Assembly (NCBI GenBank): GCA_963710375.1
Contig: CAVPZX010000003.1
Coordinates: forward strand, 96,001-160,000
DNA: 64,000 nucleotides
DNA from: Nitrospirota bacterium
GTDB taxonomy: Bacteria > Nitrospirota > Thermodesulfovibrionia > Thermodesulfovibrionales > Dissulfurispiraceae
Direction of reading: 5' to 3'
Shown here: positions 39,305 to 63,986 of the stretch, piece after piece
Numbering within the stretch: the stretch's first letter is position 1
Layout: each line of letters begins with the position of its first letter
Made by a program: the position numbers and the translations under genes
Notes under the pieces: model-generated
What the model was told of the DNA's origin: nothing
Databases searched by the model: none
The model's input: the letters and a program-made list of their open reading frames with translations, nothing else

Positions 39305-40723
39305 GTGAGCGGCGATGAAAAAAGCAAGAGTATAGTTGACAGGATTTGGGATTTATTTTCTTCCATAAAGCTTGCGGTGGTAGTTTTCACCATTATCTCG
39401 GCCACCTCTATCGTGGGCACCGTAATTGAACAACAAGCCGAACCTGAGCAGAATATAAAACTGCTGGCAAAGTTTGTAGGTGTGGATTTTGCTCCAACTG
39501 CCTTTCGCATATTGGATACGCTGGGTTTTACCGATATGTTCCGCTCCTGGTGGTTCATGGCCCTACTGTTCATATTCACGGCTAATCTGGTCATCTGTTC
39601 TTTTGAGAGACTTCCCAAGATATGGAAGCTTGTCAAGGAGCCGGTCAAGCCTGTAACAGCTGAACGGTTAAATGCCCTGTCGATAAAACGGGAGATTATT
39701 TTAAAAGAGAAAGTTGACAAAGCCGCAGAGCATGCCGGGGCTGTACTGAAGAGGAATGGATTCAGGGCCGGCGAGAGGAAAGAGGACAACGGGGTCCAGT
39801 TATACGCTGAAAAGGGCAGATACAGCAGGCTTGGAGTATACATTACACATCTGAGCATACTGCTGATATTGGGTGGAGCGGTAATAGGGATGATTTTCGG
39901 GTTCAATGGCTCGCTTAATTTACCGGAAGGGATGTCATCCGTTGTAGCCTATAAGAGCAGCGGAATGCAGATACCGCTGGGGTTTGAGGTCCGGTGCGAT
40001 AATTTCAATGTTTCATTTTACGACAATACTGATACTCCCAAATCATATAAAAGCTGGCTGACTATAATAGAGAGCGGTAAGGAAGTAAAGGGAAAGGTGA
40101 TAGATGTGAACAACCCATTACAGCATAAAGGGATTACATTTTATCAGGCCAGTTACGGGTATGCTCCGTCGAGGAATTCGATATTTAAATTCAGCGTAAC
40201 ATCGAATGCCGGGACAAGAGGAGATGTGAATGTTAAATTTGGAGAACCGTTCACGATACCCGGGACAGCAGTGACCGGGAAAGTTATTGACTTTAGTCCT
40301 GCAATCGGTATGGACGAGTCCGGGAAGCTGTATACGTATGCGGAAATGATGAATAACCCGGCAGCATTTGTGGAATTTACAGAGAACGGGAAAATGAAAT
40401 ACCGGCAGTGGATACTGGTGCGGTTACCGCAGACATGGAAGGTGGCGGATGGGACAGTTGAGTTCAAGCATTTATGGGGAGCACAGTATACCGGATTGCA
40501 GGTGAGGAAAGACCCTGGAGTATGGCTTGTCTATCTGGGGTGCATGGTTATGGCCATGGGACTGTATACCGCATTTTTCATGGGACATAGCAGGGTATGG
40601 ATATGGGTGAGGGAAGACAAGGGCGGAGCAAAGGTTACGATAGCCGGGTCAGCGAATAAAAATAAGATCTCTTTTGAACAGAAGATAGATAAAATGACAA
40701 AAGAAGTAAGCAGTAAGCAGTAG
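39305..40723 (+). CDS. resB: cytochrome c biogenesis protein ResB/Ccs1 (System II)
   Basis: FSSIKLA, GTVIEQ, SWWF, HLSILLIL.G, VNNPL..KG..FYQASY, TGLQV.KDPG. Confidence 0.93.
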   Translation: MSGDEKSKSIVDRIWDLFSSIKLAVVVFTIISATSIVGTVIEQQAEPEQNIKLLAKFVGVDFAPTAFRILDTLGFTDMFRSWWFMALLFIFTANLVICSFERLPKIWKLVKEPVKPVTAERLNALSIKREIILKEKVDKAAEHAGAVLKRNGFRAGERKEDNGVQLYAEKGRYSRLGVYITHLSILLILGGAVIGMIFGFNGSLNLPEGMSSVVAYKSSGMQIPLGFEVRCDNFNVSFYDNTDTPKSYKSWLTIIESGKEVKGKVIDVNNPLQHKGITFYQASYGYAPSRNSIFKFSVTSNAGTRGDVNVKFGEPFTIPGTAVTGKVIDFSPAIGMDESGKLYTYAEMMNNPAAFVEFTENGKMKYRQWILVRLPQTWKVADGTVEFKHLWGAQYTGLQVRKDPGVWLVYLGCMVMAMGLYTAFFMGHSRVWIWVREDKGGAKVTIAGSANKNKISFEQKIDKMTKEVSSKQ

Positions 40724-40739
40724 GCAAAGGAGGTTATAC

Positions 40740-41825
40740 ATGGACAGTTCTCAGTTTTTCGGCATAGCGAGCATTGCGTATATACTGGCAATGGTTGCGT
40801 ATATAGCGTATCTGGCATTCAAGAATTCCGTGGTCGGGGTTATCGCGACAACAATAACAGTGGTTGGATTTATCTCGCATACAATAGCATTTATTCTGCG
40901 TTGGAAAGAGTTTTACGAAATCGGCCAAATGGGGATACTGAGAGCGATACCCCTTACGAACCTCTATGAATCGCTGATATTCTTTGTCTGGTGCGTGATA
41001 CTGGCGTATCTGATCATCGAGTGGAAATACAAGAACCGGTCGTTCGGAGCTTTTATCACCCCCATCGCGGGAATGGCGCTGGCGTTTATCGACATATCGG
41101 GGATGGATAAAAATATACACCCTCTGATACCTGCGCTTCAGAGCAACTGGCTGCTGGCGCATGTAACAATGAGTTTTCTCTCCTATGCAGCCTTTGCCAT
41201 ATCCTTTGCCACATCCATGATGTACCTGATTATTACGACTGAAGACAAAAAAAGCGCTCCTTATATTTTCTGGACGATTGCCTTGGGAGTATTTGTTTCG
41301 GTGTTTCTGGCCATGGGCATAGATTTTTTAGTATTCAAAGTTGCGATGAGTTCACCGGAATCGTTCATAAAGAGCTACCTGTTCAAGGCTACTTACAGGA
41401 ACAGTTCAGGGGCGGTATCGCTCGTCAGTTATTTAGGGACGGCTGTTTTTATCTTCGTAATCTGGAAGTACGGCTATTTATTAAGAAACGTTATAACATC
41501 GTTCTCTATCTCACAGGATCTGCTTGATGACCTGACATATAAGAGTGTAGCAGTGGGGTTTCCGATATTCACACTTGGCGGACTGATATTCGGTGCGGTA
41601 TGGGCAGACCAGGCGTGGGGCAGGTATTGGAGCTGGGACCCGAAAGAGACATGGTCATTGATAACGTGGTTTGTATATGCTTTTTATCTGCACGCGAGGT
41701 TTTTAAGAGGCTGGAGGGGCAGGAGGATAGCGGTAGTTGCGGTCGTGGGATTTGTCTGCACGGTCTTCACCTACCTGGGTGTTAACCTTCTGCTGAGCGG
41801 CCTGCATTCATATGGGGGAGGATAA
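40740..41825 (+). CDS. ccsA: cytochrome c biogenesis protein CcsA/ResC (System II)
   Basis: PLTNLYES, PALQSNWL..HV, GAVWA..AWG.YWSWDPKETW (WWD), GLHSY. Confidence 0.95.
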   Translation: MDSSQFFGIASIAYILAMVAYIAYLAFKNSVVGVIATTITVVGFISHTIAFILRWKEFYEIGQMGILRAIPLTNLYESLIFFVWCVILAYLIIEWKYKNRSFGAFITPIAGMALAFIDISGMDKNIHPLIPALQSNWLLAHVTMSFLSYAAFAISFATSMMYLIITTEDKKSAPYIFWTIALGVFVSVFLAMGIDFLVFKVAMSSPESFIKSYLFKATYRNSSGAVSLVSYLGTAVFIFVIWKYGYLLRNVITSFSISQDLLDDLTYKSVAVGFPIFTLGGLIFGAVWADQAWGRYWSWDPKETWSLITWFVYAFYLHARFLRGWRGRRIAVVAVVGFVCTVFTYLGVNLLLSGLHSYGGG

Positions 41826-41903
41826 AAGGCAAAGTTAAGGCTAAGGTTAAGGTTAAGCAAGGTTTCTTGTTTTTTCCTTAACCTTAACCTTGACCTCAAC
41901 CTT
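41826..41903. repeat. inverted (AAGGTT)n / (AACCTT)n hexamer array
   Basis: AAGTTAAGGCTAAGGTTAAGGTTAAG ... CCTTAACCTTAACCTTGACCTCAACCTT; same family as 9008-9145. Confidence 0.85.
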
Positions 41904-41930
41904 CTTTTATTATGAGATTTTCAGAGGAGG

Positions 41931-42761
41931 ATGTGTGAGATGGTTTTAAAAACTCCGTTAGTTGCATTGATGCTTGTCCTTGCGGTATTTATTGCAACTG
42001 CGAACGCTGAACCCCCGTATATGGACCCTGTTACAGGAATGGAGTTTGTATTTATTAAAGGCGGTTGTTATCAAATGGGTGACCCGACCGGCGACAGCAA
42101 TGACAGGCCGCCCCATGAGGTATGCGTTAGTGATTTTTACATGAGTAAGTACGACGTTACCAATCAGCAGTTCAGAAAATTCAGGCCCGAACACAGTAGC
42201 GGCAACTTTGAGGGTTTGTCGGAAAATGGTGACGAACAGCCGGTTGTGAATGTTACCTGGGAGGATGCGGTCGCTTTTGCCGGGTGGCTGTCTCAAAAAA
42301 GCGGGCGGACTTACAGGCTGCCGACCGAGGCGGAGTGGGAGTACGCAGCCCGTGCCGGATCACAGACCACATATTTCTGGGGCAATAACCCTGACGATGC
42401 CTGCAAATATGCTAATGTGGCTGATCTGACTGCAAAGAAGCGCTGGAAGAAATGGACCGTCTTTAATTGTGATGACAAGTTTCTGGTTACGTCTCCTGTC
42501 GGCAGTTTTCTGCCAAACAACAATGGGCTTTACGATATGCTCGGCAATGTTTGGCAATGGGTCGAGGACGTATACAATAAAGAAGCCTATATCAAGCTTC
42601 CTAAATACAACCCGGTGTACGAGGGTTCCGGCAAATATCGTGTCATGCGGGGCGGGGGCTGGAGCAACGGGCCTCTGGGTGTGAGGGTTTCCCATCGCGT
42701 TCCGCTTACACCGGATTTCGGACATCATGCTCTAGGGTTCCGGCTAGTGATGGCCAAATGA
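41931..42761 (+). CDS. secreted formylglycine-generating enzyme (SUMF1/FGE-sulfatase) domain protein
   Basis: PVVNVTWEDA, RLPTEAEWEYAARAG, GLYDMLGNVWQW, RGGGW, GFRL. Confidence 0.92.
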   Translation: MCEMVLKTPLVALMLVLAVFIATANAEPPYMDPVTGMEFVFIKGGCYQMGDPTGDSNDRPPHEVCVSDFYMSKYDVTNQQFRKFRPEHSSGNFEGLSENGDEQPVVNVTWEDAVAFAGWLSQKSGRTYRLPTEAEWEYAARAGSQTTYFWGNNPDDACKYANVADLTAKKRWKKWTVFNCDDKFLVTSPVGSFLPNNNGLYDMLGNVWQWVEDVYNKEAYIKLPKYNPVYEGSGKYRVMRGGGWSNGPLGVRVSHRVPLTPDFGHHALGFRLVMAK

Positions 42762-42818: not shown

Positions 42819-43763
42819 TTGAACATGCTGATTTCGTTCCGTTTCGAAACGCTTTATAAATTACTCATTATTTTTTGTCTTATTCTCTCTGCTCTTCCCG
42901 GCTGCAAAAAGAGCGAAGAAGTCACTCCGAAGATGGCATCACCGGGTCCTGAAATCGTTATCGGACTTATTCCGGAACAAAACATCTTCGCACAGATGGA
43001 TAAGTACCAGCTGCTTTCAGACTACCTTTCGGCCAGGATCGGCAGGCCAATTCACTGGCGAGTCGAGCCCCATTACGGCACTATTATTGATGACTTTCGC
43101 TCTTCTAAACTTGACGGGGCTTTTTTTGGGAGTTTCAGTTATGTGCTTGTTCACGCAAGAACTGGCGCTGAGGTCATGGTGCGCGCCGAGGACCTTAACG
43201 GTGTGTTGACGTACAGGGGTCTTATTTTTGTGAGAAGGGACAGCAGAATTAAATCGGTAAAAGACATGAAAGGGAAACGCTTTGCTTTTGTTGACAAGGC
43301 GACGACAGCAGGTTACCTGTTACCACTGGCATATTTCAAGAAAATGGGTATTGACAACTACGCCGCTTACCTGAGAGAGGTTTACTTCACCGGAACTCAT
43401 ACGGACGCGATTTACGATGTGTTGAACCGGAAGGCGGATATCGGAGCTGCAAAAAACACTGTTTTAGAGAAAGTTGAAGCCGCTGACAGCCGCATAAAGA
43501 AAGAACTGATTGTTCTTGAAAAGTCTCCCGAGGTGCCTGAAAATGGCCTTGCTGTCAGAAAAGACCTTGATCCCGCACTTAAGAAAAAACTGAAGGATGT
43601 CCTGCTCGATATGTACCAGGATCCGGATGGACAGAACGTCCTGGAGCAGTTCGGGGCGAGAAGGTTTATCGAGACCACGGATCAGGATTATAAGGCAGTT
43701 TACGAATATACCCGGCAACTCGACATCGACCTCCAAACCTTCGACTACGGGGGCAAGAAATGA
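42819..43763 (+). CDS. PhnD/phosphonate-type periplasmic binding lipoprotein (no permease adjacent)
   Basis: Lipobox LPGC; Y.GLIFVR.DS, KGKRFAFVD..TTAGYL.P, GTH.DAI..V. Confidence 0.85.
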   Translation: MNMLISFRFETLYKLLIIFCLILSALPGCKKSEEVTPKMASPGPEIVIGLIPEQNIFAQMDKYQLLSDYLSARIGRPIHWRVEPHYGTIIDDFRSSKLDGAFFGSFSYVLVHARTGAEVMVRAEDLNGVLTYRGLIFVRRDSRIKSVKDMKGKRFAFVDKATTAGYLLPLAYFKKMGIDNYAAYLREVYFTGTHTDAIYDVLNRKADIGAAKNTVLEKVEAADSRIKKELIVLEKSPEVPENGLAVRKDLDPALKKKLKDVLLDMYQDPDGQNVLEQFGARRFIETTDQDYKAVYEYTRQLDIDLQTFDYGGKK

Positions 43764-45964
43764 AGAGACAAATTGTCATTGGACTGACTGCCTTTGCCAT
43801 GCTCTTTTTCCTCGGCGGCATTTACATTGTTTTTTCGGTCAACAAGGCGACAACTATGCTCGACCGTCTGATCTTGCTTCACCAGGTCGAGATCCTGAGA
43901 GAGCACCTGATGATAGAAATCAAGAAAGTGCAGGCTGATGTCAACTTGAAAAATACCCGTTATGCCAGGACCGTTGATACATTTGTAAAAGATGTGCAGC
44001 AGATGGATCAGGTTTCCCAGGAATGTTTTTCCTGCCATCACACGGAAGCTGTCGCCATGAGGCTCCAGGACATGGAACGGCAGGTCGGATTGTATAAAAA
44101 TGCCCTGAGCAGGGTGCTGACAATGCGCGCAAACGACGTCAGGCTGGACGAGGAGGACGATAACACTTACAGAGTAGGCGAAGAATTGGTCGGTAAGGTC
44201 AACACTATGATTGCCCTGGCCACCAGCGATCTTGATAAGGAGACGCGGATCTCACTCAGAAACATCCAAAACACGAAGAATGTGCTTTATGTGCTCGCCA
44301 CACTGAGTCCATTGCTCGGTTTTTGTTTGGCATTCGTCTTTATAAAAGGATTTACCAGACCGATAAAGGCCTTGCTGGATGCGACCAGGAAGCTGAAGGC
44401 CGGAAATCTGGACCATCGGATAGAAACTCTGAAAGACGAGTTTGGAGAGTTGGCCGATTCTTTTAATGAAATGGCCGGCGCACTCACCAGTCATATGAAG
44501 AGAGTGGAAGAGAGCGAGAAACGCTACCGTATGCTCTTTGAGAGCGCCGGTGATGCTATTTTTATAATCGAGGCAGAAGGCGGGAATGCAGGGCGGATAG
44601 CAGCAGCAAACAAGGCTGCGACAGTTATGCATGGGTATACCGTAGAGGAATTGGTAGGTATGAGCATCGGTGATCTTGATAGCCCCGATTCAGCCCTGGA
44701 AGTGCATGACCGTATCGCGAAAATACTCAGGGGAGAATGTCTCAACGAAGAAATAGGTCATGTCAGGAAGGATGGCACTGTCTTCCCTGTTGAAATAAGT
44801 GCGGTCTTGCTGGAGCTTGAAGGGCATAAATATGTCCTCGCTTTTGACCGTGACATCACCCGGCGCAAAGAGGTGGAAAAGGCTTTGCGCCAGTCTGAGG
44901 AAAAGTTTTCGAAGGCATTCCGCGCCAGCCCCGACTGGATTACTATCTCCACTCTTGATGAGGGGCGATACATAGAGGTAAACGACGCTTTCATGAGGAT
45001 CAGCGGCTACAGCAGAGAAGAGGTCATAGGGCGAACTTCGGGTGAGTTGGGCATTTGGGCTTATCCCAAAGAACGGGGGGAAATGTTGCCCGCGTTGAAG
45101 AAGGATGGGGCAGTATGGAACAAGGAAGTCCATTTGCGCACTAAATCAGGCAATGTCCTGACCATGCGGAGGTCCTCGCAGGCAATCGACTACGGCGGGG
45201 TGCGGTGTATTATCTCGGTGACTCACGATATCACAGAGCGAAGGAAGACCGATATGATGTTGCAGCGGGCAGAGCAGATGAAAGCGGTCGCCGAGATTGC
45301 GGTGGGACTTGCCCACGAAATAAAAAATCCCCTTGCGGGCATTAAATCGTCTATGGAGGTGCTGCATTCAGAAGGCGCCTGTTCGGGGGAGGGCAGTGAG
45401 ATACTGTTGAAAGTAATCAGTGAGATTCGCAGGATCGAAATGCTGCTTAAGGACCTGCTCAATTTTGCCCGACCGCCTAAACCGGAGTTAGGCTTGGTCG
45501 ATATCAACCCGTTACTCGATTCCACCCTGGAGTTCTCAGTGAACAAGGTCAGAATGGCGTCCCGACCAGGGATAACCATTGTCAGGGATTACGAAGAGGG
45601 CCTGCCGGCTGTGATTGCAGACGGCATGCAGATCAAGCAAGTGTTTGTTAATCTCTTTCTTAATGCGGTTGAGGCCATGCCGGACGGCGGCACTCTTAAA
45701 ATAAAAACGAGTTATGAGAAGGCGTCTTCGTCAGTCAGAATAGAAGTAGCAGATACCGGCAAGTGCATCGACGATGTTACGATGGACAAGATTTTCCAGC
45801 CCTTTTTCACTACTAAAGCAAAAGGCACCGGCATGGGATTAGCTATCTCGAAACGGCTTATTGAAGACCATGGAGGCACGATAACGCTGGGCAACTTGCC
45901 GGACCGAGGCGCTGTCTTTACCATCAGGATACCTGTCCCGCAGTACAAAGAGGTTAAGGCATGA
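43760..45964 (+). CDS. sensor histidine kinase: periplasmic CxxCH, HAMP, two PAS
   Basis: CFSCH between TMs; DEFGELADSFNEM; two PAS; AHEIKNPL; NLFLNA; GTGMGL. Confidence 0.93.
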   Translation: MKRQIVIGLTAFAMLFFLGGIYIVFSVNKATTMLDRLILLHQVEILREHLMIEIKKVQADVNLKNTRYARTVDTFVKDVQQMDQVSQECFSCHHTEAVAMRLQDMERQVGLYKNALSRVLTMRANDVRLDEEDDNTYRVGEELVGKVNTMIALATSDLDKETRISLRNIQNTKNVLYVLATLSPLLGFCLAFVFIKGFTRPIKALLDATRKLKAGNLDHRIETLKDEFGELADSFNEMAGALTSHMKRVEESEKRYRMLFESAGDAIFIIEAEGGNAGRIAAANKAATVMHGYTVEELVGMSIGDLDSPDSALEVHDRIAKILRGECLNEEIGHVRKDGTVFPVEISAVLLELEGHKYVLAFDRDITRRKEVEKALRQSEEKFSKAFRASPDWITISTLDEGRYIEVNDAFMRISGYSREEVIGRTSGELGIWAYPKERGEMLPALKKDGAVWNKEVHLRTKSGNVLTMRRSSQAIDYGGVRCIISVTHDITERRKTDMMLQRAEQMKAVAEIAVGLAHEIKNPLAGIKSSMEVLHSEGACSGEGSEILLKVISEIRRIEMLLKDLLNFARPPKPELGLVDINPLLDSTLEFSVNKVRMASRPGITIVRDYEEGLPAVIADGMQIKQVFVNLFLNAVEAMPDGGTLKIKTSYEKASSSVRIEVADTGKCIDDVTMDKIFQPFFTTKAKGTGMGLAISKRLIEDHGGTITLGNLPDRGAVFTIRIPVPQYKEVKA

Positions 45965-47340
45965 AGAGGAAGGGAAAGCTCTTTCTTGTCGATGATGATG
46001 AACTCATTGTCATGATGCTGTCACGGGCGCTGAAGGCAGAAGGATATGAAGTCTATACAGACACGGGTTCCAGGGATGTGGTGGACATAATAAGCTCCCG
46101 GACCCCTGATATTATTATGCTCGATATCGATTTGCCGGGACTGAAAGGAATGGACGTGCTCAAGGAAGTGAAAGCGAAACTATCTGTCGAAGTCGTGATG
46201 CTCACGGCTGACGAAACCGCCGAAACCGCTGTCAAGGCGATGAAGCTGGGCGCTGCCGACTATATGACCAAACCTTTCAGTATGGATGAGGTGAAAATCG
46301 TCATCGGCAACACTATGGATAAAATCAGGCTCAGGCACGAAGTTGATTACCTGAGAAAGTTGAATCATGAACTTTTCGAAAAAGAGATAATCGGCAATTC
46401 GACCGGTATACAGGAATTGAAGGAAAAAGCAGGGAAGCTCATAGCGGCACATGTCGAGACTATTCTGATCACCGGGGAGAGCGGTACAGGCAAGGAACTC
46501 GTTGCCAGGTATATTCATCGCCAAATGCACAGCGATGAAAATTATTCGCCTTTTGTGCGCGTCAATTGCGCGGCTTTGCCTGAAACTCTCCTCGAAAGCG
46601 AACTCTTTGGCAGCGAGAAGGGGGCCTTTACGAATGCTGTAGCCGACAAGAAAGGTCTTTTCGAGACTGCTGATGGAGGATCTATACTGCTGGATGAAAT
46701 AGGAGAGATGAAAACTTCCCTCCAGAGCAAATTGCTGAGAGTCATAGAGGAAAGATCGGTACGCCGCGTCGGCGGCAAGGATGAACTCCCGATCGATGTT
46801 GTCATTATCGCCACGACCAACAGGAACCTTCAGGAAGCTGTTGACCAGGGAGAATTTCGGCTGGACCTTTTTTACAGGTTGAACGCTTTTTCGATGCATT
46901 TGCCCTCTCTGAGAGACAGAAGGGAGGACATTCCCATGCTGGCAAGATACTTTCTCGCCCGTCTTTCCGCTAAGTACAATAAGACAATGATTTCGGGTTT
47001 TTCCCAGGAAGCTGAGAGGCTCATGGTTTCTTACCGGTGGCCCGGGAATGTGCGGGAGCTCAGGAATGTGATAGAACGGATTGTCGTGCTTGAGAGCACC
47101 GATATGATTTTGCCTGTGCATCTGCCAAAGGAGATCATCCAGCAGTCTAGTAGTACGGCGGCGGCCATTTCCGAAGAATTCCTGCTTCCTGATGGAGGCA
47201 TAGAGCTCGAAGAACTGGAGAAGAAGCTTACGATTCAGGCGCTGCAGAGGACCGGCGGGAACAAAACAGCTGCAGCAAAATTGCTGGGCGTCAGTTACGA
47301 CAGTTTTCGGTATCAAATCAAGAAATTCAGCCTTGAATAG
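45961..47340 (+). CDS. sigma54-dependent response regulator (NtrC/AtoC family)
   Basis: REC (DDD, D, KP), GESGTGKE, ESELFG, GAFTNA, LDEIGE, WPGNVREL, Fis-HTH. Confidence 0.95.
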   Translation: MKRKGKLFLVDDDELIVMMLSRALKAEGYEVYTDTGSRDVVDIISSRTPDIIMLDIDLPGLKGMDVLKEVKAKLSVEVVMLTADETAETAVKAMKLGAADYMTKPFSMDEVKIVIGNTMDKIRLRHEVDYLRKLNHELFEKEIIGNSTGIQELKEKAGKLIAAHVETILITGESGTGKELVARYIHRQMHSDENYSPFVRVNCAALPETLLESELFGSEKGAFTNAVADKKGLFETADGGSILLDEIGEMKTSLQSKLLRVIEERSVRRVGGKDELPIDVVIIATTNRNLQEAVDQGEFRLDLFYRLNAFSMHLPSLRDRREDIPMLARYFLARLSAKYNKTMISGFSQEAERLMVSYRWPGNVRELRNVIERIVVLESTDMILPVHLPKEIIQQSSSTAAAISEEFLLPDGGIELEELEKKLTIQALQRTGGNKTAAAKLLGVSYDSFRYQIKKFSLE

Positions 47341-47363: not shown

Positions 47364-48170
47364 ATGAATGCACTCAAGCGCTTTGTTTGTCCGGTCCTCT
47401 TCATTGTTGCTAGTTTTTTTTTCGTTAAAGATGCCTTGTCAGGTTTTCCAGTTGTGCCACCTCAGGAATACGGTCGTGTCGTCATAAAAAATTATTCGGT
47501 AGCTGCCGGGCTTGCTCCGGTTGTGTTTGATCATTGGCTCCACAGGGCACGTTTCACATGCAGGCTGTGTCACGTCGATATAGGGTTCGCCATGCAGTCA
47601 GGCGGTACCGGCATCAAGGCTGAAACTAACGGGAAAGGGTTTTATTGCGGGTCCTGTCACAATGGCTCGTTTACCTTCGAAGACAAAAAGGTGTTTGCGT
47701 CTTGTTCTACCAAAGCAAGTGACGCTGGAGACCCCCGCTGTGAGAGATGCCATTCGTATGGCAAAAAGGTCAAAAAGGAATACGATTTCTTCACTTTTAC
47801 CAGGGACCTGCCCAGGAAGGGACTCGGCAACGGCATCGATTGGGAAACGGCCGAAGAAAAAGGAATCATAAGACCTGTCGATTTTATTCCGGGAATATCT
47901 GTGAGGAGGAAGCCGCTCAAGCCGCAAGAGGACTTCACTATTAAAGCAAGGGGCAAATGGATAAAAGCCGACATTATATTTTCCCATAAGAAACACGTCA
48001 AATGGAACGGCTGTGAGGTCTGCCACCCGGATATATTCCCGATCACAAAGCAGGGACCACAGAGCTTCAGCATGTTCGATATATCAGGGGGACAATATTG
48101 CGGCCTCTGTCATGGGAATGTGGCATTCCCCATTAATGAATGCCGGCGGTGTCATACTAAACCTGTGTAG
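47364..48170 (+). CDS. periplasmic hexaheme cytochrome c, two c7-type triheme domains
   Basis: CRLCH, CGSCH, CERCH, CEVCH, CGLCH, CRRCH; VVFDH..H and IFSH..H; signal peptide. Confidence 0.9.
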   Translation: MNALKRFVCPVLFIVASFFFVKDALSGFPVVPPQEYGRVVIKNYSVAAGLAPVVFDHWLHRARFTCRLCHVDIGFAMQSGGTGIKAETNGKGFYCGSCHNGSFTFEDKKVFASCSTKASDAGDPRCERCHSYGKKVKKEYDFFTFTRDLPRKGLGNGIDWETAEEKGIIRPVDFIPGISVRRKPLKPQEDFTIKARGKWIKADIIFSHKKHVKWNGCEVCHPDIFPITKQGPQSFSMFDISGGQYCGLCHGNVAFPINECRRCHTKPV

Positions 48171-54424: not shown

Positions 54425-54440
54425 TGGTACAATCTTTGCT
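54425..54440 (+). promoter_or_regulatory. sigma54 (-24/-12) promoter
   Basis: TGGTAC-AATCT-TTGCT. Confidence 0.8.
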
Positions 54441-56637: not shown

Positions 56638-56700
56638 AGTGCTCCACCTTTTTGTTCAGCTTTACACAGCTATCTCCAGTCACTTCTCACGTGTCTTTAC

Positions 56701-56736
56701 TGGTGAAACCGCTTACCAGACCTGGTGGATTTACCG
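56701..56736. promoter_or_regulatory. paired upstream activator site
   Basis: TGGTGAAACCGCTT-N8-TGGTGGATTTACCG. Confidence 0.72.
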
Positions 56737-56811
56737 GTCCAATAGGGCATGGCATACCTGCAATGTGATAATAATCATTACATATCAATGACATAAATAA
56801 TTATCGCGAGC

Positions 56812-56827
56812 TGGTACAAACATTGCT
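56812..56827 (+). promoter_or_regulatory. sigma54 (-24/-12) promoter
   Basis: TGGTAC-AAACA-TTGCT. Confidence 0.8.
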
Positions 56828-56847
56828 TTCTATAGATTTCGTTTAAC

Positions 56848-57807
56848 ATGAAAAGAAAACTACTAAACAAAACTCATCTAATCCTTTTTTCAGCGTTCAT
56901 CCTGGCAATCGCCTTAATGCCGGTGAAGGTCCTGGCAGCAAGGGGTTCGTATCTTTATAGTCTTTCCAATTTTGATGGTATCGCGCCGTTTAACTGGGTG
57001 CGGATGCATATTGATGATGCTACTGGAGAAGTCTACGTCGCTGATCCGGCAACTCAATCCATCGTAATTTTTAATAATGTCGGCATGCAAATCTATGATT
57101 TCGACACTAGTGAGTTCGGCAGGGTTATGGATTTCGCGGTAGACAATGAGGGCAATTTCCTGATTTTAACATCTCAGTATGGCTCTGCTGCCACTCTCAC
57201 GAAATGCAACTACCGCGGCGAATTTGTTTCGAGGACCGAATTCAAAGGCATTCCGCCCGGAATCGCATCGAACTTTTCCCCAAATCGTTTTTTCTACAAA
57301 AATAACCGCTTTTACCTCGCAAGCGATGGAGCGATGAAAGTCGTTGTAACCGACATAAACGGTATTTTCGAGTCAAGTTACGATCTTAAATCGATGCTTA
57401 AATTGGATGAGAAGACACTGCAGTCCAGCACAGGCATTTTCGGTCTCACGGTCGATAATGCCGGCAGGATACTCTTCACCATTCCCTCTGCATTTTCAGT
57501 GTATATAGTATCTCCCGACGGCACATGGACGTCTTTTGGCCAGCACGGCAGTACTCCCGGGAAATTCAATATTGTATCCGGGATTGCCGAGGACGATAAA
57601 GGGAACATATATGTAACCGACAAGCTCAAATGCGCGGTCATGGTCTTTGACCGGAACTATAACTTCAAGACAGAGTTCGGGTACAGAGGGTCAGCTAAGG
57701 ATAATTTGGTTGTCCCAGATGACCTTGCGGTCGATAAAAGCGGCAAGGTATATGTAAGTCAATCGAGGAACCGCGGCGTAAGTGTTTTTCATGTGGATAT
57801 TGACTAA
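56848..57807 (+). CDS. secreted NHL-repeat beta-propeller protein
   Basis: GEVYVAD, FG..G..PGKF....GIA.D..GNIYVTD, P.DLAVD..GKVYVS. Confidence 0.9.
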   Translation: MKRKLLNKTHLILFSAFILAIALMPVKVLAARGSYLYSLSNFDGIAPFNWVRMHIDDATGEVYVADPATQSIVIFNNVGMQIYDFDTSEFGRVMDFAVDNEGNFLILTSQYGSAATLTKCNYRGEFVSRTEFKGIPPGIASNFSPNRFFYKNNRFYLASDGAMKVVVTDINGIFESSYDLKSMLKLDEKTLQSSTGIFGLTVDNAGRILFTIPSAFSVYIVSPDGTWTSFGQHGSTPGKFNIVSGIAEDDKGNIYVTDKLKCAVMVFDRNYNFKTEFGYRGSAKDNLVVPDDLAVDKSGKVYVSQSRNRGVSVFHVDID

Positions 57808-57923: not shown

Positions 57924-58040
57924 CAATCCTCTGTAAAAGGTAAACCCATCGTAAGGTGGGGGCACAAAGTCAACGGGTCCCTGTTCAGCCCATATGTAAG
58001 GGACGGCCGGATTGCCGGAGTCAAAAAAAGTGGAGGATTG
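57924..58040 (+). ncRNA. GEMM-I / c-di-GMP-I class riboswitch with anti-RBS platform
   Basis: GGTAAACCCATC-GTAA-GGTGGGGGCACAAAG (P2 with GNRA loop), CGGGTCCCT...AGGGACGGCCGGATTGCC (P3), P1 CTCTG/CGGAG. Confidence 0.9.
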
Positions 58041-58042
58041 CA

Positions 58043-59425
58043 ATGAAAGGAATCAAAGTTTTATTTGTTATCATGGCAGCGGCCCTGATAACACTTGGCT
58101 TAGGCAGTACTTCTTACGCATTCCATGACGGCGGCGTCGCAGTTTGCGACAGCTGCCATACTATGCACAATGCGCAGGGTACAACGCCGATGCAAGGTAA
58201 CAGCGTTTCAGGTTATGGAAAATCAAATGGTGTGCAGTTTACCGGTAATCCATTCCTGCTCCAGGGAAGCGATCAAAGCTCCACCTGTCTGAACTGCCAT
58301 GGAGCAACTACTACCGGCTCTTACCATGAATACACGCTTGGCGCAGCGACAGCTACTGTTCCACTCAACTATACTCCGGGTGGTGACTTTGGCTGGCTCC
58401 AGATCGTTCCCGCCAACGGTACTAGTTCCGGGCAGAATTACAGAAGAGGTCACAACATAGTTGCAGTGGACTACGGATTGTCCGCATCACCGGTCTTCAC
58501 GTCAGCCCCGGGCGCAAATACAGCAAATGCATATCCCGCAAGCAATTTCTACTGCTCAAGCTGCCATGATCCTCACGGCACATACAGGCACACAGGAGGA
58601 GATCCGGCCGTCAATAGTGATATCAAAAGCTCTGTCTTTACGAGCGGCGGCGCAGGCGTGCAGACCATAGGATCAGGCTCTTATGGTCAAACCGCTACAG
58701 GTCAAGGCGCCACAGGTAGTGAGGCAGTAGGCGTTTACAGACTTCTTGCAGGTGCGAAATATTTGCCTGCATCCGTTGCGATTTCAGCATCAGCTTTTGT
58801 TAACGATTCCCCCATAGCAGAGGCTCCCAGCACCTACAATGTATCGGAAGGCGTTTTCGGCACTACGAGCGGTACCAAAGGTGCCGGCGGCGCCACTGCT
58901 GAGCTTATAGTGTCCTATGGCTCCGGCATGTCGGAGTGGTGTGGAAACTGCCATGGCGCTATTCTTCAGGGCGCCACAATGGGCAATTTTATCCATCCTG
59001 CAGGAGCAGCTGCGACTCTCGGCACAACGACAGTCGGCTCCCAGACGCTTGCTGCGAATTATAATAGCTATATCGGGTCTGGCAATTTGTCCGGTACTAA
59101 TGTATATACTTCGCTGATTCCAGTAGAGAATGGTTCGATAACTACAGGTGCTTCTAAATTTACCGGTATTGCTCCGACTGTTAGCGGAACCAGCAACGTA
59201 ATGTGCCTCACCTGCCACAGGGCGCATGCTTCAGGATGGCAGAACATGACAAGATGGGACAACACTACAGAGATGATTACGAATACCACCGGGTATGCTG
59301 CGGGTTATACCCCAATCTACAACTACACCACGACCCAGTACCAGGCTGCTTACAACGGCAGGCCGTATGGTGCATTCGTAGCAAACCAGCGTTCACTCTG
59401 TAATAAGTGCCACGCAAAAGACTAA
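58043..59425 (+). CDS. OmcS-like hexaheme c-type cytochrome (copy 2)
   Basis: FHDGGVAVCDSCHTMH, CLNCH, CSSCHDPHG, GMSEWCGNCH, CLTCHRAHASG, LCNKCHAKD; GGAGG RBS. Confidence 0.93.
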   Translation: MKGIKVLFVIMAAALITLGLGSTSYAFHDGGVAVCDSCHTMHNAQGTTPMQGNSVSGYGKSNGVQFTGNPFLLQGSDQSSTCLNCHGATTTGSYHEYTLGAATATVPLNYTPGGDFGWLQIVPANGTSSGQNYRRGHNIVAVDYGLSASPVFTSAPGANTANAYPASNFYCSSCHDPHGTYRHTGGDPAVNSDIKSSVFTSGGAGVQTIGSGSYGQTATGQGATGSEAVGVYRLLAGAKYLPASVAISASAFVNDSPIAEAPSTYNVSEGVFGTTSGTKGAGGATAELIVSYGSGMSEWCGNCHGAILQGATMGNFIHPAGAAATLGTTTVGSQTLAANYNSYIGSGNLSGTNVYTSLIPVENGSITTGASKFTGIAPTVSGTSNVMCLTCHRAHASGWQNMTRWDNTTEMITNTTGYAAGYTPIYNYTTTQYQAAYNGRPYGAFVANQRSLCNKCHAKD

Positions 59426-59452: not shown

Positions 59453-59490
59453 AAGAAAAGAGGCCGGCAGCCGCCGGCCTCTTTTCTTTT
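59453..59490 (+). terminator. intrinsic (bidirectional-type) terminator
   Basis: AAGAAAAGAGGCCGGC-AGCC-GCCGGCCTCTTTTCTT. Confidence 0.9.
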
Positions 59491-59589
59491 TATCTTGTCC
59501 TGTATTGAATTATTACTGTTTTCTATTTTAGTATGTACCGTGATAGCGTATATCTTTATATGTACTTTAATTTAAGGGGGGGCATACTG

Positions 59590-61017
59590 GTGAAAAAATC
59601 ACTGGGCATAGCACTTTTAATCTTGCTTTTTATGGCAGGGTGTGAGTCAGTGAACACTCAGGTGAAGCCGGCGCTTGAGAATGAGGGGGAAGTGTTCGTA
59701 TATATCGCATCATTTCCTCAGGAGGCGGACAGGCTTACCGTCGAAATTGAGAGCGTTACCGCTGTGCGTAACGACGGCGCAGAGTTCCCCCTTACGCTTA
59801 ATTTTGTAACACTGAAAGGAAGCGACCTGAAGAGACAACGCTTCCTGGCTTCCGGCCGGCTGCCGCCGGGTCATTATACGGGCCTGTCCATAAAGACGAA
59901 GAGCGCGAAAGTGGCTGCTGAGGAGGGAGAAGCAGCGTTGCTCGTACCGCCCGAGCCTGTGAAGAACGAATTCTCTTTTGAGGTGACAAGGAAAAGAGCA
60001 CTCCTTCTCTCCCTTCTTTATCAGCCTTCCAAGTCCGTGCTGGAAGGCTTCACGTTCAGGCCGGTCTTCACGATCTCTATCCCGAGTGCGCCGCCAGTCA
60101 ACCTTATCGGTTATGTAACGAACAGCGGCGCCAATACCATTACGGTTTTTGATAAGCAGTCAGGGCTGGTAAGAAGCGTTATTGCAACAGGTGAGCGGCC
60201 AATGGGCATGGCCCTCGACCAGACTTTGCGTAAGGCCTATGTCGCTTTTGAGGGTGAAGATGCCGTGGGTATCATTGACCTGTTGTCCGGCACGATTGTA
60301 AACAGGATCTACCTCAGCGGAGGCGACATGCCCTGTGAATTGGCGCTCACCCCCGACCAGCAGTTCCTGTTAACGGTGAACACAGGTTCACAGACTGTCA
60401 GCATTATCAATACGCAATCCATGTTCGAAACAGCGAGGGTGCCTGTCGGACAAGGACCTCATTCAATAATTATCAACAGGACCGGCAGCAGGGCATATGT
60501 CTTCAACTCCATTTCGAACACAATATCGATCATTAATATTGCTGCCTGGTCATCGGGACGGCCTACTACTGCCCAGGCGGTTCAGACTGTCAGTACAGAG
60601 CCGGGTCCCATGACCGGCCAGTTCAGCAGCAGGGGAGACAAACTCTATGTGGTCCAGGAGCGCTCGCTATATATTACTGTACGGGATCCGGCCTCTAACG
60701 CTCTGCTAAACAGAATATACATGGGTACCGGAGGCAGGACGATCAAAGTGGACCCTAATACAAATATGCTCTATGTGGCGCCTGCCGGCGGAACAGATAT
60801 CGAGATCTATGACCCGTTCTCACTGATTGCCGGCTATTTCATGCCTATGGAAGGAGAAGTTGTTTCTATGACAATAGACAATGACGACAACACCTTATGC
60901 GCTGTGGTTCCCGAAAAGAGAATGGTGAAGATCATCAATCTCACGAGCAGGAAAGTGATCTCTGAGATGGACGTCGATGTCAACCCGTACTGGGTGGACG
61001 TAATGGGCGAACGGTAG
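59590..61017 (+). CDS. lipoprotein with N-terminal beta-sandwich and YVTN/YncE beta-propeller
   Basis: GTG start, lipobox FMAGC; YVTNSG.NTI.V.D, G..P.G, V.VG..P repeats. Confidence 0.88.
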   Translation: MKKSLGIALLILLFMAGCESVNTQVKPALENEGEVFVYIASFPQEADRLTVEIESVTAVRNDGAEFPLTLNFVTLKGSDLKRQRFLASGRLPPGHYTGLSIKTKSAKVAAEEGEAALLVPPEPVKNEFSFEVTRKRALLLSLLYQPSKSVLEGFTFRPVFTISIPSAPPVNLIGYVTNSGANTITVFDKQSGLVRSVIATGERPMGMALDQTLRKAYVAFEGEDAVGIIDLLSGTIVNRIYLSGGDMPCELALTPDQQFLLTVNTGSQTVSIINTQSMFETARVPVGQGPHSIIINRTGSRAYVFNSISNTISIINIAAWSSGRPTTAQAVQTVSTEPGPMTGQFSSRGDKLYVVQERSLYITVRDPASNALLNRIYMGTGGRTIKVDPNTNMLYVAPAGGTDIEIYDPFSLIAGYFMPMEGEVVSMTIDNDDNTLCAVVPEKRMVKIINLTSRKVISEMDVDVNPYWVDVMGER

Positions 61018-61034
61018 GTATCGGCCGGCCGGGA

Positions 61035-63347
61035 ATGTCAAGACTTTCACTGTTATTTTTTTTAGTGTGTGCCGCTGCGGTGATATATACGGAGGCGTTT
61101 AGTGGAAGAGCCTGTGCAGACGATATATCGGGCTATGCGGAACTGGACTATTCACATTCCAACCAGAAGACCGACAACGGAAACGGAAACGTTTCCACGC
61201 AGAAAACAGATGATGTCACACAGCGATATAACCTTTCGCTAACTAAGCTGCTTTATCCCAACCTTAAGTTTTTTGCAAACGGTATTTTTGAGAAGGATAT
61301 GGCATCTACCGTAGACGAAACCGGCAAGACAAATTCAACGACGACAAACATTCAGCCGGTCGTCAGCCTTACTTTAGGCACCCCGGTAATCGTGGCCGGG
61401 GCCACATATAACAGGCTCCAGATTAATACGCAGTCCTCAGGCGCCTCTCAGACCCTTATCAACGAAAATTACAGTGGTTCGCTCGGCTTAAGGCCGGAAG
61501 GGTTGCCGTCTTTCGACATCAATGAACAAATGACCAGGACTTATGACCCGGCGCATGTCGTTGAGAACCTGATAACGGACCGGCTGTCAGTGGGTTCAAG
61601 GTTTAGTCCCGTGAAGGGTCTTGATCTGGGTTATCAGTTCGGCTATACCGATACTAATGACAAGTTGGCAGATGTTACCACGACGCAGATCAACAACAGC
61701 GGCACATTTTCGTATAATCATAGTTTTTGGGGTAACAGGGTTCGTTTTGGCGTAGACGGCAACGTCTCGCAGCTTCAAACTAAGGCGACCATCGGCGCTG
61801 CATCTACTACCGGCACAGCGCAGTTCAGCCAGTCAGCCGTTTCTGGTCTGTATGCAGCGGACTCGACAGCAGACTCTCCACTGGGCGTGGATGTGCCGCC
61901 CCATACACCCGTCAACGATGCAATGATTTCCACAACCTTCCTTATCAATGGCGGCGATTTCCTCGGCAATGTGGGAAAGCTGAATATCGGTTTTCCTCAG
62001 ACGAACCCGGCGGACAACAACCCCCGTGATGTAGGTCTGGCTTTTGCGCAACCCACGGAGCTGGATGCCATTTATGTAACCGTTAACCAGGATGTCAACA
62101 GCATAGCTACATCATATTCCTGGGATGTATACATAAGCTCCGATACCAATATCGGGCAAGGGGTGAGTCCCACTGCCACGCAGCAGTGGACCCTATACCA
62201 GCAGGGGGCAACTTTTATCTTTTCAGAGATCGACAACACTTTTAGAATTAGCTTCCAGAAGGTTACAGCTCAGTTCTTCAAGGTGGTAACAAAGCCCCTC
62301 AGTGTGCCTGCTTCTGTGCCTGGAGTGGATGTCAATAACATACTTATCAGCCAGGTACAGGCGTTCGATACGACCGCTCCTTCGAATGCTCCGACAAACA
62401 AGACCACCACGACTACACAGAACTACGACATGAACTTGAGGGTGAGGATCCTCAATAAGCCGGTGCTCTACTACGACCTGACGTCCTATTATTCAAACAC
62501 GTCAAATAAAGGTTCAGGCTTCGCAGTGGGTCACCCCAGCCTGTTGACATACTACATCTCCAACGGCCTGTCAGGGGCATACCAGTTCAGCAGGGTATTT
62601 TCGACATCCGCAAGGGTCGCACTAGAGGACAGCAAAGACCAGCAGGGCTCCGGCGTCACCCAGATCTACAATGCCGCGGTTACCGCGGCGCCCCTTGAAA
62701 CGTTGAGCCACTCTCTCGTCTTCAGCAGCAGGCGGGAATCGATCCACGGAGCGCCTCAAGACATCACCTCGCTATTCCTGACTAATCTTGCCCAACTATA
62801 TAAAGGGATCAATGCTGCCTTTTCAGGCGGATTAAACTGGACCACCCAGACAACGCTTCAGAAAAACACGAGTGAAACCCTTAATGCCACCCTCAGCTTC
62901 GTCCCTTACAAAGTCCTTACTATTAACAGTGATTTTACCTACACGAACTCAAAGACAACAGGAGGGAACATACCCAACGTGCTGACAACATCTGAACGAA
63001 GCGATCTGGCGTTTACATATACTCCATTCCCGACACTGAACTTTTTAGGGTCCATAGGCGTGTTTTCCGGGGCAAATGTCCAGTCGAGCACTATCGTAAA
63101 CTATGGCGTGAACTGGTCGCCGTTCCCCAACGGCACACTCCTGTTCAATTTCTCCTACATTGAGGATCTCAACTCTTTGAACAGTGTAAAAGATACAACG
63201 ATATTGCCTACTGTCAGATGGAACATCAGCCCTAACACATATTTGACAATTACCTATAATATCTTCAAGACTAAATCCGTCGTAACAAATGTGCCTCAGA
63301 ACACATCCCTCGACACTTTAAGTACGGTGCTCCATGTGTCATTCTGA
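61035..63347 (+). CDS. large outer-membrane beta-barrel protein with an inserted soluble domain
   Basis: Signal peptide, long runs of alternating amphipathic strands rich in S/T/N/Y, terminal LHVSF. Confidence 0.75.
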   Translation: MSRLSLLFFLVCAAAVIYTEAFSGRACADDISGYAELDYSHSNQKTDNGNGNVSTQKTDDVTQRYNLSLTKLLYPNLKFFANGIFEKDMASTVDETGKTNSTTTNIQPVVSLTLGTPVIVAGATYNRLQINTQSSGASQTLINENYSGSLGLRPEGLPSFDINEQMTRTYDPAHVVENLITDRLSVGSRFSPVKGLDLGYQFGYTDTNDKLADVTTTQINNSGTFSYNHSFWGNRVRFGVDGNVSQLQTKATIGAASTTGTAQFSQSAVSGLYAADSTADSPLGVDVPPHTPVNDAMISTTFLINGGDFLGNVGKLNIGFPQTNPADNNPRDVGLAFAQPTELDAIYVTVNQDVNSIATSYSWDVYISSDTNIGQGVSPTATQQWTLYQQGATFIFSEIDNTFRISFQKVTAQFFKVVTKPLSVPASVPGVDVNNILISQVQAFDTTAPSNAPTNKTTTTTQNYDMNLRVRILNKPVLYYDLTSYYSNTSNKGSGFAVGHPSLLTYYISNGLSGAYQFSRVFSTSARVALEDSKDQQGSGVTQIYNAAVTAAPLETLSHSLVFSSRRESIHGAPQDITSLFLTNLAQLYKGINAAFSGGLNWTTQTTLQKNTSETLNATLSFVPYKVLTINSDFTYTNSKTTGGNIPNVLTTSERSDLAFTYTPFPTLNFLGSIGVFSGANVQSSTIVNYGVNWSPFPNGTLLFNFSYIEDLNSLNSVKDTTILPTVRWNISPNTYLTITYNIFKTKSVVTNVPQNTSLDTLSTVLHVSF

Positions 63348-63404
63348 AGCCTGGGGGTATTAGTGGAAATAGTATCAAATAATATGTTAATGTTTGTTTT
63401 TCGT

Positions 63405-63986
63405 ATGAGTAATATCGTATCTAAAATCAAAGCGATTGTTCTGTTAGCAGTGCTATGCTTGCTGCCCTGCTGCGGCGGACGCAGTTCTGATTCCTATCGG
63501 GATCCGAATATGGATTTCGCCTCTATACGGACCGTGGCCGTGCTGCCCTTTGCAAATCTGTCAAAAGACCAATTGGCTGGTGAGAGGGTGAGGGACGTGT
63601 TTATTCCAATGCTGATGGAGAGCGGGAGCATCTATGTTTTGCCTCCTGGAGAAGTAGCCCGCGGACTCTCAAGGATCAATGTTGCCAATCCCACTGCTCC
63701 TGCTGTTGAAGAGGTGACGAAACTGGCCTCGATCCTGAGAGTGGATGCCGTTATCACAGGTTTGGTAAGGGAATACGGTGAATTACGGTCGGGAAACACA
63801 GAGGCAAATGTCATTTCGCTGAGCCTCGAAATGCTCGATGGACAGACAGGAAGGGTAGTGTGGGTCGCCTCTACCACTAAAGGGGGGATCACGTTGAAAG
63901 ACAGGCTCCTTGGCGGCGGCGGCAGCGCCATGAACGATGTGACCGAAAATGCAGTGAATGATCTGCTTGATAAGCTTTTTAAATAG
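63405..63986 (+). CDS. CsgG/GNA1162(DUF799)-like lipoprotein
   Basis: Lipobox LPCC; TVAVLPFANLS, L.VDAVITG.V.EY, L..LD..TG.VVW; start uncertain. Confidence 0.8.
   Translation: MSNIVSKIKAIVLLAVLCLLPCCGGRSSDSYRDPNMDFASIRTVAVLPFANLSKDQLAGERVRDVFIPMLMESGSIYVLPPGEVARGLSRINVANPTAPAVEEVTKLASILRVDAVITGLVREYGELRSGNTEANVISLSLEMLDGQTGRVVWVASTTKGGITLKDRLLGGGGSAMNDVTENAVNDLLDKLFK

Follow-up and report, generated by a model that had tools for sequence, protein, structure and literature searches.

Organization of the gene cluster

The DNA analyzed here, hereafter the window, is a stretch of 64,000 nucleotides from a Nitrospirota genome designated G000 (3.19 Mb, 98.8% complete), in which it corresponds to G000:C3:96001-160000. 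It harbors a cytochrome gene cluster of the osc type, osc being the omcS-companion cluster of Geobacter sulfurreducens (GSU2504-GSU2493; PMC13194489; bioRxiv 2025.11.06.686851). The locus is a real, intact cluster of a known and widespread kind, with variant traits in the lineage of its subunits, in its control and in its genomic setting. It spans positions 39,282-77,573 (~38 kb), 13.6 kb of it lying beyond the window end; positions above 64,000 keep the window numbering, to which 96,000 is added for G000:C3. Among its 73 CxxCH heme motifs, 25 are found within the window.

The cluster opens with the left copy (39282-41915) of a 2,634-bp direct repeat, with the ribosome-binding site of resB at one end and the position of the tsaD start codon at the other. 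It contains resB (39305-40723; PF05140, E 3e-100), a core gene of cytochrome c maturation system II that adjoins ccsA in relatives, and ccsA (40740-41825; PF01578, E 3e-49), likewise a core gene, for heme attachment. These are followed by an exported FGE/sulfatase-modifying-like protein (41931-42761; PF03781), also present in the sensor cassette of the relatives G007 and G002, and by an orphan PhnD/PtxB/AioX-like periplasmic binding protein (42819-43763; PF12974; PDB relatives PtxB, PhnD, ArrX and AioX). Next come a sensor histidine kinase (43760-45964), in which two membrane helices flank a periplasmic domain with one CxxCH, together with HAMP, two PAS, HisKA and HATPase domains, and a sigma-54 activator (45961-47340; receiver, AAA+ and HTH domains) with a GAFTNA loop. 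Two exported di-c7 hexahemes, c7a (47364-48170) and c7b (48185-49102; PDB 3OV0, E 7e-30; 86% identical to its G007 counterpart), both match TIGR04257 and carry six CxxCH each; a 106-amino-acid (aa) exported cassette protein (49099-49419) has no family above cut-off. All these genes are on the forward strand. On the reverse strand lie a receiver-PilZ protein (50254-50940), a stand-alone PilZ protein (49494-49886), which is a partial duplicate of the former, and two sigma-54 -24/-12 sites at 50955-50970 and, as its duplicate, 50024-50039. Both PilZ calls are below the Pfam cut-off (E 0.001 and 0.005), but the RxxxR and DxSxxG motifs are present.

The forward strand continues with a multi-pass membrane protein with TPR repeats (51211-53652; 813 aa; TPR sole match), presumably a TMTC-like glycosyltransferase, a TonB C-terminal gene split over two frames (53774-54258; a single open reading frame, ORF, in G003), and a sigma-54 site (54425-54440) upstream of an AraC-type HTH fragment (54478-54954; absent from the G003 cluster) and of S1 (55184-56572). 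S1 is an OmcS-family hexaheme and a duplicate of S2 (87% DNA identity). A further sigma-54 site (56812-56827) stands upstream of the NHL-S2-osc genes, namely NHL1 (56848-57807), an exported NHL beta-propeller, a cyclic di-GMP (c-di-GMP)-I riboswitch (57925-58040), S2 (58043-59425), the likely main subunit, and the helper genes, from which S2 is separated by a 16-bp terminator-like hairpin (59453-59488; the scan overall gave 7 sites vs 12.9 in shuffles, i.e., fewer than shuffled sequence). The helper genes encode a YVTN beta-propeller lipoprotein in the OscD position (59533-61017), a large outer-membrane beta-barrel with an inserted domain in the OscE position (61035-63347; 770 aa; from its predicted fold), a GNA1162-like lipoprotein in the OscF position (63363-63986; E 3e-6), and a second lipoprotein in the OscG position (63958-64000 onward, i.e., G000:C3:159958-161145; CsgG E 0.008, below cut-off). 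Beyond the window, they continue with a SurA/peptidyl-prolyl isomerase (PPIase; G000:C3:161279-163108), a 26-heme protein (G000:C3:163105-165108), a 16-heme protein (G000:C3:165105-166394) and a second NHL protein (G000:C3:166391-167308). Three opposite-strand genes (G000:C3:167371-169318) then precede S3, a third OmcS-like hexaheme (G000:C3:169644-170912, forward strand like the helpers), and the right repeat copy with the second resB-ccsA, which is followed by tsaD (G000:C3:170940-173573; window numbering 74940-77573).

A previous sequence-only reading of the window had described a complete nanowire island, probably continuing past the window end. Completeness has to be abandoned; the continuation was found, from the second lipoprotein through the second resB-ccsA. 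ResB and CcsA, the binding protein, the CxxCH kinase, the sigma-54 activator and the NHL and YVTN propellers had all been placed correctly, the protein taken for a beta-barrel is predicted to fold as one, and the parts ascribed to cyclic-dinucleotide control bear the expected riboswitch score and PilZ motifs. The label CsgG-like is weak: the lipoprotein at 63363-63986 is GNA1162-like, and a match to CsgG, below cut-off, is given by the next lipoprotein alone. Overlooked were the FGE-like protein, the 106-aa exported protein, the 813-aa membrane/TPR protein, the split TonB-C gene and the AraC fragment.

OmcS-family subunits

S1 and S2 each have six CxxCH, are similar to OmcS over their full length and match one PDB sequence only, namely OmcS 6EF8 (phmmer E 1e-71 and 6e-73, respectively), so that on sequence grounds they are members of the OmcS family. 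Their bit scores against OmcS (246-250) are lower than those of three Geobacteraceae homologs (372-439). OmcS has 12 His ligands, one of which is donated by the neighbouring subunit (PMC6584659). All 12 heme His are kept in S1 and in S2, and 11 of 12 in S3, which has Lys at the position of His16. The inter-subunit ligand of OmcS is taken here to be this His16 (Wang et al. 2019). Among 99 full-length family rows, which also entered a quick tree (of 108 rows, the 9 that carry less than six motifs were set aside), 86 have His at this position and 13 do not.

S3 falls into a group of six rows in a quick tree (SH-like approximate likelihood ratio test, SH-aLRT, 100), with its G003 counterpart, two Nitrospirota rows and two Geobacterales rows, and five of the six adjoin the same pair of small membrane genes. 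The Geobacterales members of this His16-less group (L063:3065-4309 and L070:9851-11086) carry seven CxxCH. Since a subunit without His16 could accept a His at heme 5 and cannot donate one, S3 may act as a chain end.

Recent transfer from Geobacterales was considered and finds no support, the seven-row group that holds S1 and S2 in the unrooted tree consisting of Nitrospirota-labelled or same-genus rows only. In G003, a lone OmcS-family duplicate is found outside the cluster (G003:C2:507208-508611, L016) with only a 3' riboswitch remnant upstream, and one Nitrospirota locus (L046:8461-18189) has at least five tandem OmcS-like genes.

Helper block and its distribution

The genes after S2 match the eight-gene osc block, namely propeller, barrel, two lipoproteins, PPIase, 26-heme, 16-heme and NHL. 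In G. sulfurreducens, the maturation and secretion of OmcS have been connected with this block (GSU2500-GSU2493; bioRxiv 2025.11.06.686851), and roles of OscD-H are described in PMC13194489; its helpers are known here through their descriptions, and the assignment of Osc letters follows from gene order. The barrel is predicted to be all-beta, with about 28 strands and the inserted domain (predicted local distance difference test, pLDDT, 84.6), and has no family match in Pfam or NCBIfam.

For comparison, 74 GTDB loci were used (from the best 80 of 169 confirmed, with 12 of 64 parts scanned; many loci are short), along with 68 genomes of the host family; the named loci and the G-numbered genomes may overlap, and their counts are kept separate. 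At least three of five helpers (YVTN, barrel, two lipoproteins, PPIase) can be found beside an OmcS-like gene in 40/74 loci, including 7 of the 17 labelled Nitrospirota, and helper-bearing loci also come from Geobacteraceae, Acidobacteriota, Desulfuromonadales and Fibrobacteria. Helper gene order in Geobacter and Geomonas records is the same as in G000, and across loci the block repeatedly includes the 26- and 16-heme genes. The NHL1 family is found in 43/74 loci, and the receiver-PilZ gene in 6/74 as well as in the G003, G007 and G064 clusters; the TPR membrane protein has matches near OmcS-like genes in 17/74, some via TPR alone. A named record, Nitrospiraceae Ngb-4 (L068), has the osc block (5/5 helpers tested) and two OmcS-like genes. 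Within the host family, the osc barrel occurs in 5/68 genomes, 2 of them among the 10 of the host genus.

In G000, S2 directly precedes the YVTN gene, at the oscC position, where G003 has an extra 443-aa paralog; S2 may itself be the oscC-like gene, and such a single-gene pattern before the block has been described in Geobacter (bioRxiv 2025.11.06.686851). In G003, the activator (G003:C2:404463-405843) and the second lipoprotein (G003:C2:382336-383518) each lie in two frames, through error or decay. The two c7-type hexahemes of the sequence-only reading do have six CxxCH each, but they stand outside the conserved wire module, c7b being found in 1/74 loci and neither gene in the G003 cluster. 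The further claim of an uncharacterised system in another lineage was overstated: the osc cluster has been described, and omcS genes in Thermodesulfovibrionia or Nitrospirota metagenome-assembled genomes are in print (PMC8478452, PMC11312239).

Sensor cassette and predicted sigma-54 control

The periplasmic CxxCH of the kinase is present in 20/20 homolog rows, and in 15 of those loci the binding protein adjoins the kinase. In modelled complexes, the pair formed by the binding protein and the kinase sensor domain scored 0.84, against 0.00 for the best of three controls; the mark used is reached by 116/157 solved complexes and by 2/215 mismatched pairs, counts that hold roughly for the present runs, in which own alignments and a heme were used. 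The runs showed 100% contact agreement with partner pLDDT of at least 90, and the predicted interface includes invariant residues. The sensor domain itself has no match in the PDB beyond its helix/HAMP part; the complex may nevertheless resemble a solved one, as PtxB, PhnD, ArrX and AioX are relatives of the binding protein. From these models, the orphan binding protein is predicted to dock on the heme-bearing periplasmic domain of the kinase. The binding protein alignment has no invariant Cys, such as arsenite binding would call for, and no aio or arr genes are found among the 34 ORFs scanned.

Four sigma-54 sites are found in the window (0.33 expected), all of them within the cluster. Such a site precedes NHL1 in 16/39 loci, vs 1/40, 0/32 and 0/8 for three internal genes, and rpoN is present in the G000 genome.

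The same cassette can be found in front of another type of wire gene. In G007, a genome of the same genus (98% complete), kinase-resB-ccsA-tsaD comes first; behind it lie genes for FGE, the binding protein, the heme kinase, the activator and c7 proteins, followed by an OmcE-like cluster, receiver-PilZ and nupC. The G007 tetraheme matches OmcE (7TFS, E 1e-13; 9YUQ, E 2e-8) and has a sigma-54 site upstream, no OmcS match being found in that genome and no OmcE match in G000. Identity between G000 and G007 is 80-87% for FGE, binding protein, kinase, activator and c7b, and the c7 pair, a possible carrier or sensor partner, accompanies the cassette and not osc. The OmcE-type cluster of G007 (G007:C3:208399-228863; L124, L125) encodes 13-, 11-, 8-, 7-, 7-, 5- and 4-heme cytochromes, including proteins of 1,166 aa and 853 aa. 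The kinase and the c7 pair precede an OmcE cluster in G064, and the kinase occurs with osc in G063; resB was not seen beside the cassette within the stretch fetched for either. The sensor domain is present in 24/68 family genomes and OmcE-like matches in 17/68. Mutual exclusion of osc (5/68) and OmcE-like genes was tried and rejected, their overlap being zero but with P = 0.23. No mention of the shared cassette, or of osc clusters in this family, was found in the literature titles and abstract openings searched, a weak negative as this coverage is incomplete.

Riboswitch upstream of S2

The aptamer (57930-58020) passes the Rfam gathering score, with G20 and C92 present, the numbering of its positions being taken, as an assumption, from the Vc2 layout. 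Before S1, no second riboswitch was found at E up to 1. A G at position 20 is of the c-di-GMP type (PMC6140456) and is also found in 8/10 other riboswitches directly before OmcS-like genes outside the genus, two further matches without such a gene adjoining being left out of this count. Signs of the cyclic GMP-AMP (cGAMP) type (GEMM-Ib/Hypr) are missing: position 20 is G, not A, and 3/3 GGDEF proteins have Asp with no Ser signature, these proteins having been found with a motif regex that can miss others.

The S2 ribosome-binding site has its complement in the 5' strand of P1, with which it can alternatively pair. In the free fold, at most 0.03 of the Shine-Dalgarno (SD) sequence is open, whereas with P1 forced it is 0.36-0.79 open in 9/12 leaders, so that folding predicts a translational ON switch responding to c-di-GMP. 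The regulatory circuit postulated in the sequence-only reading is thereby supported on three sides, by the sigma-54 sites, the complex score and the riboswitch folding. A second c-di-GMP-I riboswitch at G000:C3:198559-198637 (L111), also with G20, precedes a small gene.

The resB-ccsA repeat

The two repeat copies differ by 9 mismatches, 8 of them within the last 94 bp. The sequence-only reading had counted resB-ccsA as part of the island: they do bracket the cluster, but they are core genes, ccsA being found in 9/9 other genomes of the genus and followed by tsaD in 9/9 ortholog loci examined (of 20 fetched, the remainder being a distant paralog). The site is empty in G005 and G008, and in G003 the cluster occupies the same site with one resB-ccsA copy. 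Cluster genes are mostly 74-87% identical to G003 and the flanks 78-96%; the cluster is therefore likely old at the site, and the identical repeat likely recent or homogenised.

Patchy occupancy of one site, an empty allele and flanking direct repeats are traits of a mobile island. No integrase or transposase is found among the 34 ORFs scanned, and there is no shift in composition (GC 48.1% vs 47.4%, the cluster being like the genome). Recombination between the copies would yield the empty allele and a 35.7-kb circle. In the sequencing runs X1 and X2, the repeat assembles as a separate contig of 2,540 nt whose breaks coincide with the repeat ends, at a depth of 26.8 vs 15-18 and of 15 vs ~7, i.e., about 1.6 to 2 times the flanks as a rough guide. 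The contig on the S3 side extends 30 letters into the repeat in 2/4 runs, both of one study and one of them possibly the source; the rule for bridging by a contig was 31 letters. In X3, from another study, the repeat is joined to the left flank. Three distinct short intergenic repeat families (41826-41915; 56700-56829; G000:C3:169334-169549) have copies on other contigs.

Host genome and neighboring genes

The best named relatives of Ffh belong to Dissulfurispiraceae (94%, 90%), and entries labelled Nitrospirae and Thermodesulfovibrionales come next, a comparison of a single marker without a tree. On this evidence the host is a Dissulfurispiraceae-like Nitrospirota, in agreement with the Nitrospirota-like host inferred in the sequence-only reading, and the same marker speaks against a Geobacterales host. 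Between 87 and 97% of sampled words are present in five runs, all of them soil metagenomes (two studies, one possibly the source); runs X6-X10 (share of at most 0.35), of which X6 represents a more distant strain, were excluded.

G000 encodes two c7 trihemes and NapC/NrfH-like, DsrOP/NrfCD-like and DmsE/MtrB-like proteins, several of them below curated cut-offs; from sequence, the trihemes and the NapC/NrfH-like and DsrOP/NrfCD-like proteins are plausible candidates for feeding electrons to a wire. Other genes include an FGE-like paralog, a DmsE-type decaheme and an MtrB/PioB-like porin in a single run (G000:C4:151129-155122, L121), and Rieske/cytochrome b/pentaheme genes opposite two NrfCD/DsrOP-like modules and an 11-heme NapC-like protein (G000:C4:125119-134363, L120). 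Within the window, a tRNA gene (209-296) and formate-dehydrogenase-like molybdoenzyme genes (18453-23564; from sequence and a weak match) can be found, the large subunit of the latter consisting of two ORFs with a possible selenocysteine. Just left of the cluster, a ShlB/FhaC-type two-partner secretion transporter in two frames (35591-37304) has no counterpart seen at the corresponding place in G003, G005, G007 and G008.

Proposed function and alternatives

It can be proposed, with a probability of about 0.62, that S2 (and S1) polymerise into an outer-surface filament under the control of a binding-protein/heme-kinase/sigma-54 switch and of the c-di-GMP ON riboswitch. Through such a filament, electrons would likely pass between the periplasm and a mineral or partner cell outside. 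The sequence itself shows the content and order of the genes, N-termini resembling signal peptides, the 12 heme His of S1 and S2, the sigma-54 sites, the riboswitch and rpoN. By analogy with Geobacter, ResB and CcsA would attach heme, the PPIase would fold the subunit, which the barrel and the two lipoproteins would export or anchor, electrons would be fed in by the 26- and 16-heme proteins, and His16 of each subunit would link to heme 5 of the next. In the modelled control, the binding protein would dock on the heme-bearing domain of the kinase, and the S2 ribosome-binding site would be blocked until the P1 stem of the aptamer forms. Comparison between genomes further suggests that the sensor cassette may drive the wire cluster behind it, osc in G000, G003 and G063 or OmcE-type in G007 and G064, that the His16-less S3 may end the chain, and that homologous recombination between the resB-ccsA repeat copies could excise the 35.7-kb unit as a loop or amplify it.

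Several observations weigh against this proposal. In a quick tree of 45 chosen rows, with proxies assigned by species name and G. sulfurreducens OmcS (GSU2504) absent, S1 and S2 belong to a 16-row group (SH-aLRT 99) that includes genes of G. daltonii, G. luticola and H2geo; the omcS-type copies of bemidjiense/bremense lie outside it. Genes of that type are Clade 3A, GSU2501-like, with no wire demonstrated, and OmcS itself is described as the only known wire former of the family (bioRxiv 2025.11.06.686851). As S1 and S2 group with Clade 3A proxies, the label of OmcS ortholog is withheld: the two OmcS-like subunits of the sequence-only reading stand as family members rather than as demonstrated orthologs. 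The S1 monomer model without hemes is poor (pLDDT 46.5), and G063 carries an osc cluster without an S3 ortholog, so that a cap is not obligatory. Even in Geobacter, the role of OmcS in Fe(III) oxide reduction is disputed (PMC13194489). Regarding control, two of the four sigma-54 sites are mutual duplicates, two give very short leaders, and over the whole genome a broader pattern turns up 0.9 times per 39 kb; the activator loop is GAFTNA (GAFTDA/GSFTDA in close homologs) rather than GAFTGA, 18 other sigma-54 activators are encoded in G000, and the G003 activator is frameshifted. Three of 12 leaders depart from the ON model, L055 and L080 by misfit and L094 by being out of register. Since G005, G008, G010 and G060 carry the kinase with no wire cluster seen in the stretch fetched, the link between cassette and wire is common, not fixed.

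The best fold match of the barrel, the conduit porin MtrB of the Mtr complex (template modeling score, TM, 0.38), also counts against the filament and raises the possibility of a porin-cytochrome conduit, in which the 26-heme protein threads an MtrB-like barrel and S1, S2 and S3 are surface monomers or short oligomers. The grouping of S1 and S2 with hexahemes of no demonstrated polymerisation and the recurrence of the 26- and 16-heme genes in the block would fit. Nevertheless, a conduit without a long wire seems unlikely, given that S1, S2 and most family rows retain the His16 equivalent and that S2 has a riboswitch, a trailing hairpin and extra copies in G000 and G003, as expected of an abundant subunit. 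It is somewhat less improbable, although still doubtful, that a wire serves to draw electrons from minerals or from a partner cell into Wood-Ljungdahl carbon fixation instead of Fe(III) respiration. A CdhC/ACS family match above cut-off, the failure to find dsrA and narG in a search of the 98.8% complete genome, and the DmsE-type decaheme encoded with an MtrB/PioB-like porin speak for uptake; however, the direction of electrons is not readable from sequence, the characterised homolog was studied in electron export, and several quinol-oxidising-type modules are present. Uptake is compatible with the filament part of the proposal.

A cluster that is decaying or silent, carried along and little used, is considerably more improbable: it would explain why G000 has a TonB-C gene in two frames and an AraC fragment, why the activator is frameshifted and a lipoprotein split in G003, and why the osc barrel is scarce in the family, but no core gene of G000 is disrupted, most of these genes are nearly as similar to their G003 counterparts as the flanking genes are, and the promoter site and riboswitch are conserved. 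Regarding the repeat, near-identical copies, the single copy of G003 and the S3-side contig that stops one letter short of the bridging rule could also reflect an assembly artefact, or a mixture of integrated, excised-circle and empty forms in place of a single stable chromosome. The separate X1/X2 contig, whose breaks fall precisely on the repeat ends and whose depth is raised, and the junction to the left flank in X3 make this improbable, to much the same degree as the conduit. With the filament retained as the preferred explanation, a more far-reaching hypothesis can be formulated, although it is speculative and more probably wrong than right. A shared wire switch (an orphan binding protein of the oxyanion type docking on the heme-c kinase, the sigma-54 activator and PilZ) would control interchangeable OmcS- or OmcE-type cargo at a resB-ccsA hotspot in soil Nitrospirota. 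In the present locus, the cargo would be a wire of a hexaheme lineage without demonstrated polymerisation, capped by S3 and translated in response to c-di-GMP, and together with its own genes for heme attachment it could loop out or be amplified.

If true, this would give a handle on whether OmcS-like hexahemes besides OmcS form wires (bioRxiv 2025.11.06.686851), on the start or end of a wire (PMC13712944), and on the signal that switches wire genes on. The cassette before both OmcS- and OmcE-type clusters suggests that two unrelated wires fill one physiological slot, and soil Nitrospirota in which dsrA and narG are not found are candidates for mineral or cell-to-cell electron exchange.

Comparison with known systems

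Since the cluster type is known and widespread, the surprise is limited; what the locus adds is the predicted docking of binding protein and kinase along with conserved sigma-54 sites, the same-site cassette before an OmcE-type cluster, the predicted ON riboswitch, the His16-less paralog and the repeat bracket. With the AioXSR/ArrXSR systems, a three-component architecture of binding protein, sensor kinase and regulator, the cassette shares an orphan PhnD-like binding protein, a kinase and a sigma-54 activator in one operon, and it differs from them by the c-type heme motif in the kinase and by its neighbors, which are cytochrome clusters. OmcE clusters next to resB-ccsB have been described for Desulfuromonadia (PMC13712944); like the locus in G000, they are wire clusters inserted beside resB-ccs genes, with a barrel and propellers, and G007 and G064 carry clusters of this type behind the same kinase; a shared sensor cassette goes unmentioned in the accessible part of that work. 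The MtrCAB conduit (6R2Q) likewise has a large outer-membrane barrel beside multiheme cytochromes, but the barrel of G000 has 8% identity to it, a low fold similarity and an inserted domain, and the cluster is without an MtrA-type decaheme.

The closest likeness is to G. sulfurreducens. With the OmcS filament (6EF8, 6NEF), S1 and S2 share six CxxCH, 12 His and the mature N-terminus FH-x-G, while differing by Gly/Thr-rich insertions and lower scores. As in the osc cluster of that species, OmcS-family hexahemes are followed by the eight-gene block, with a cyclic-dinucleotide riboswitch in the operon; the riboswitch of the omcST operon responds to both cGAMP and c-di-GMP (PMC6456294), whereas that of G000 has G20 in a genome where no Hypr-type GGDEF was found. 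Unlike the G. sulfurreducens cluster, that of G000 belongs to another phylum, has Clade-3A-like subunits, no separate paralog at the oscC position and a His16-less S3, and is combined with a binding-protein/heme-kinase cassette with its c7 pair and a flanking resB-ccsA repeat.

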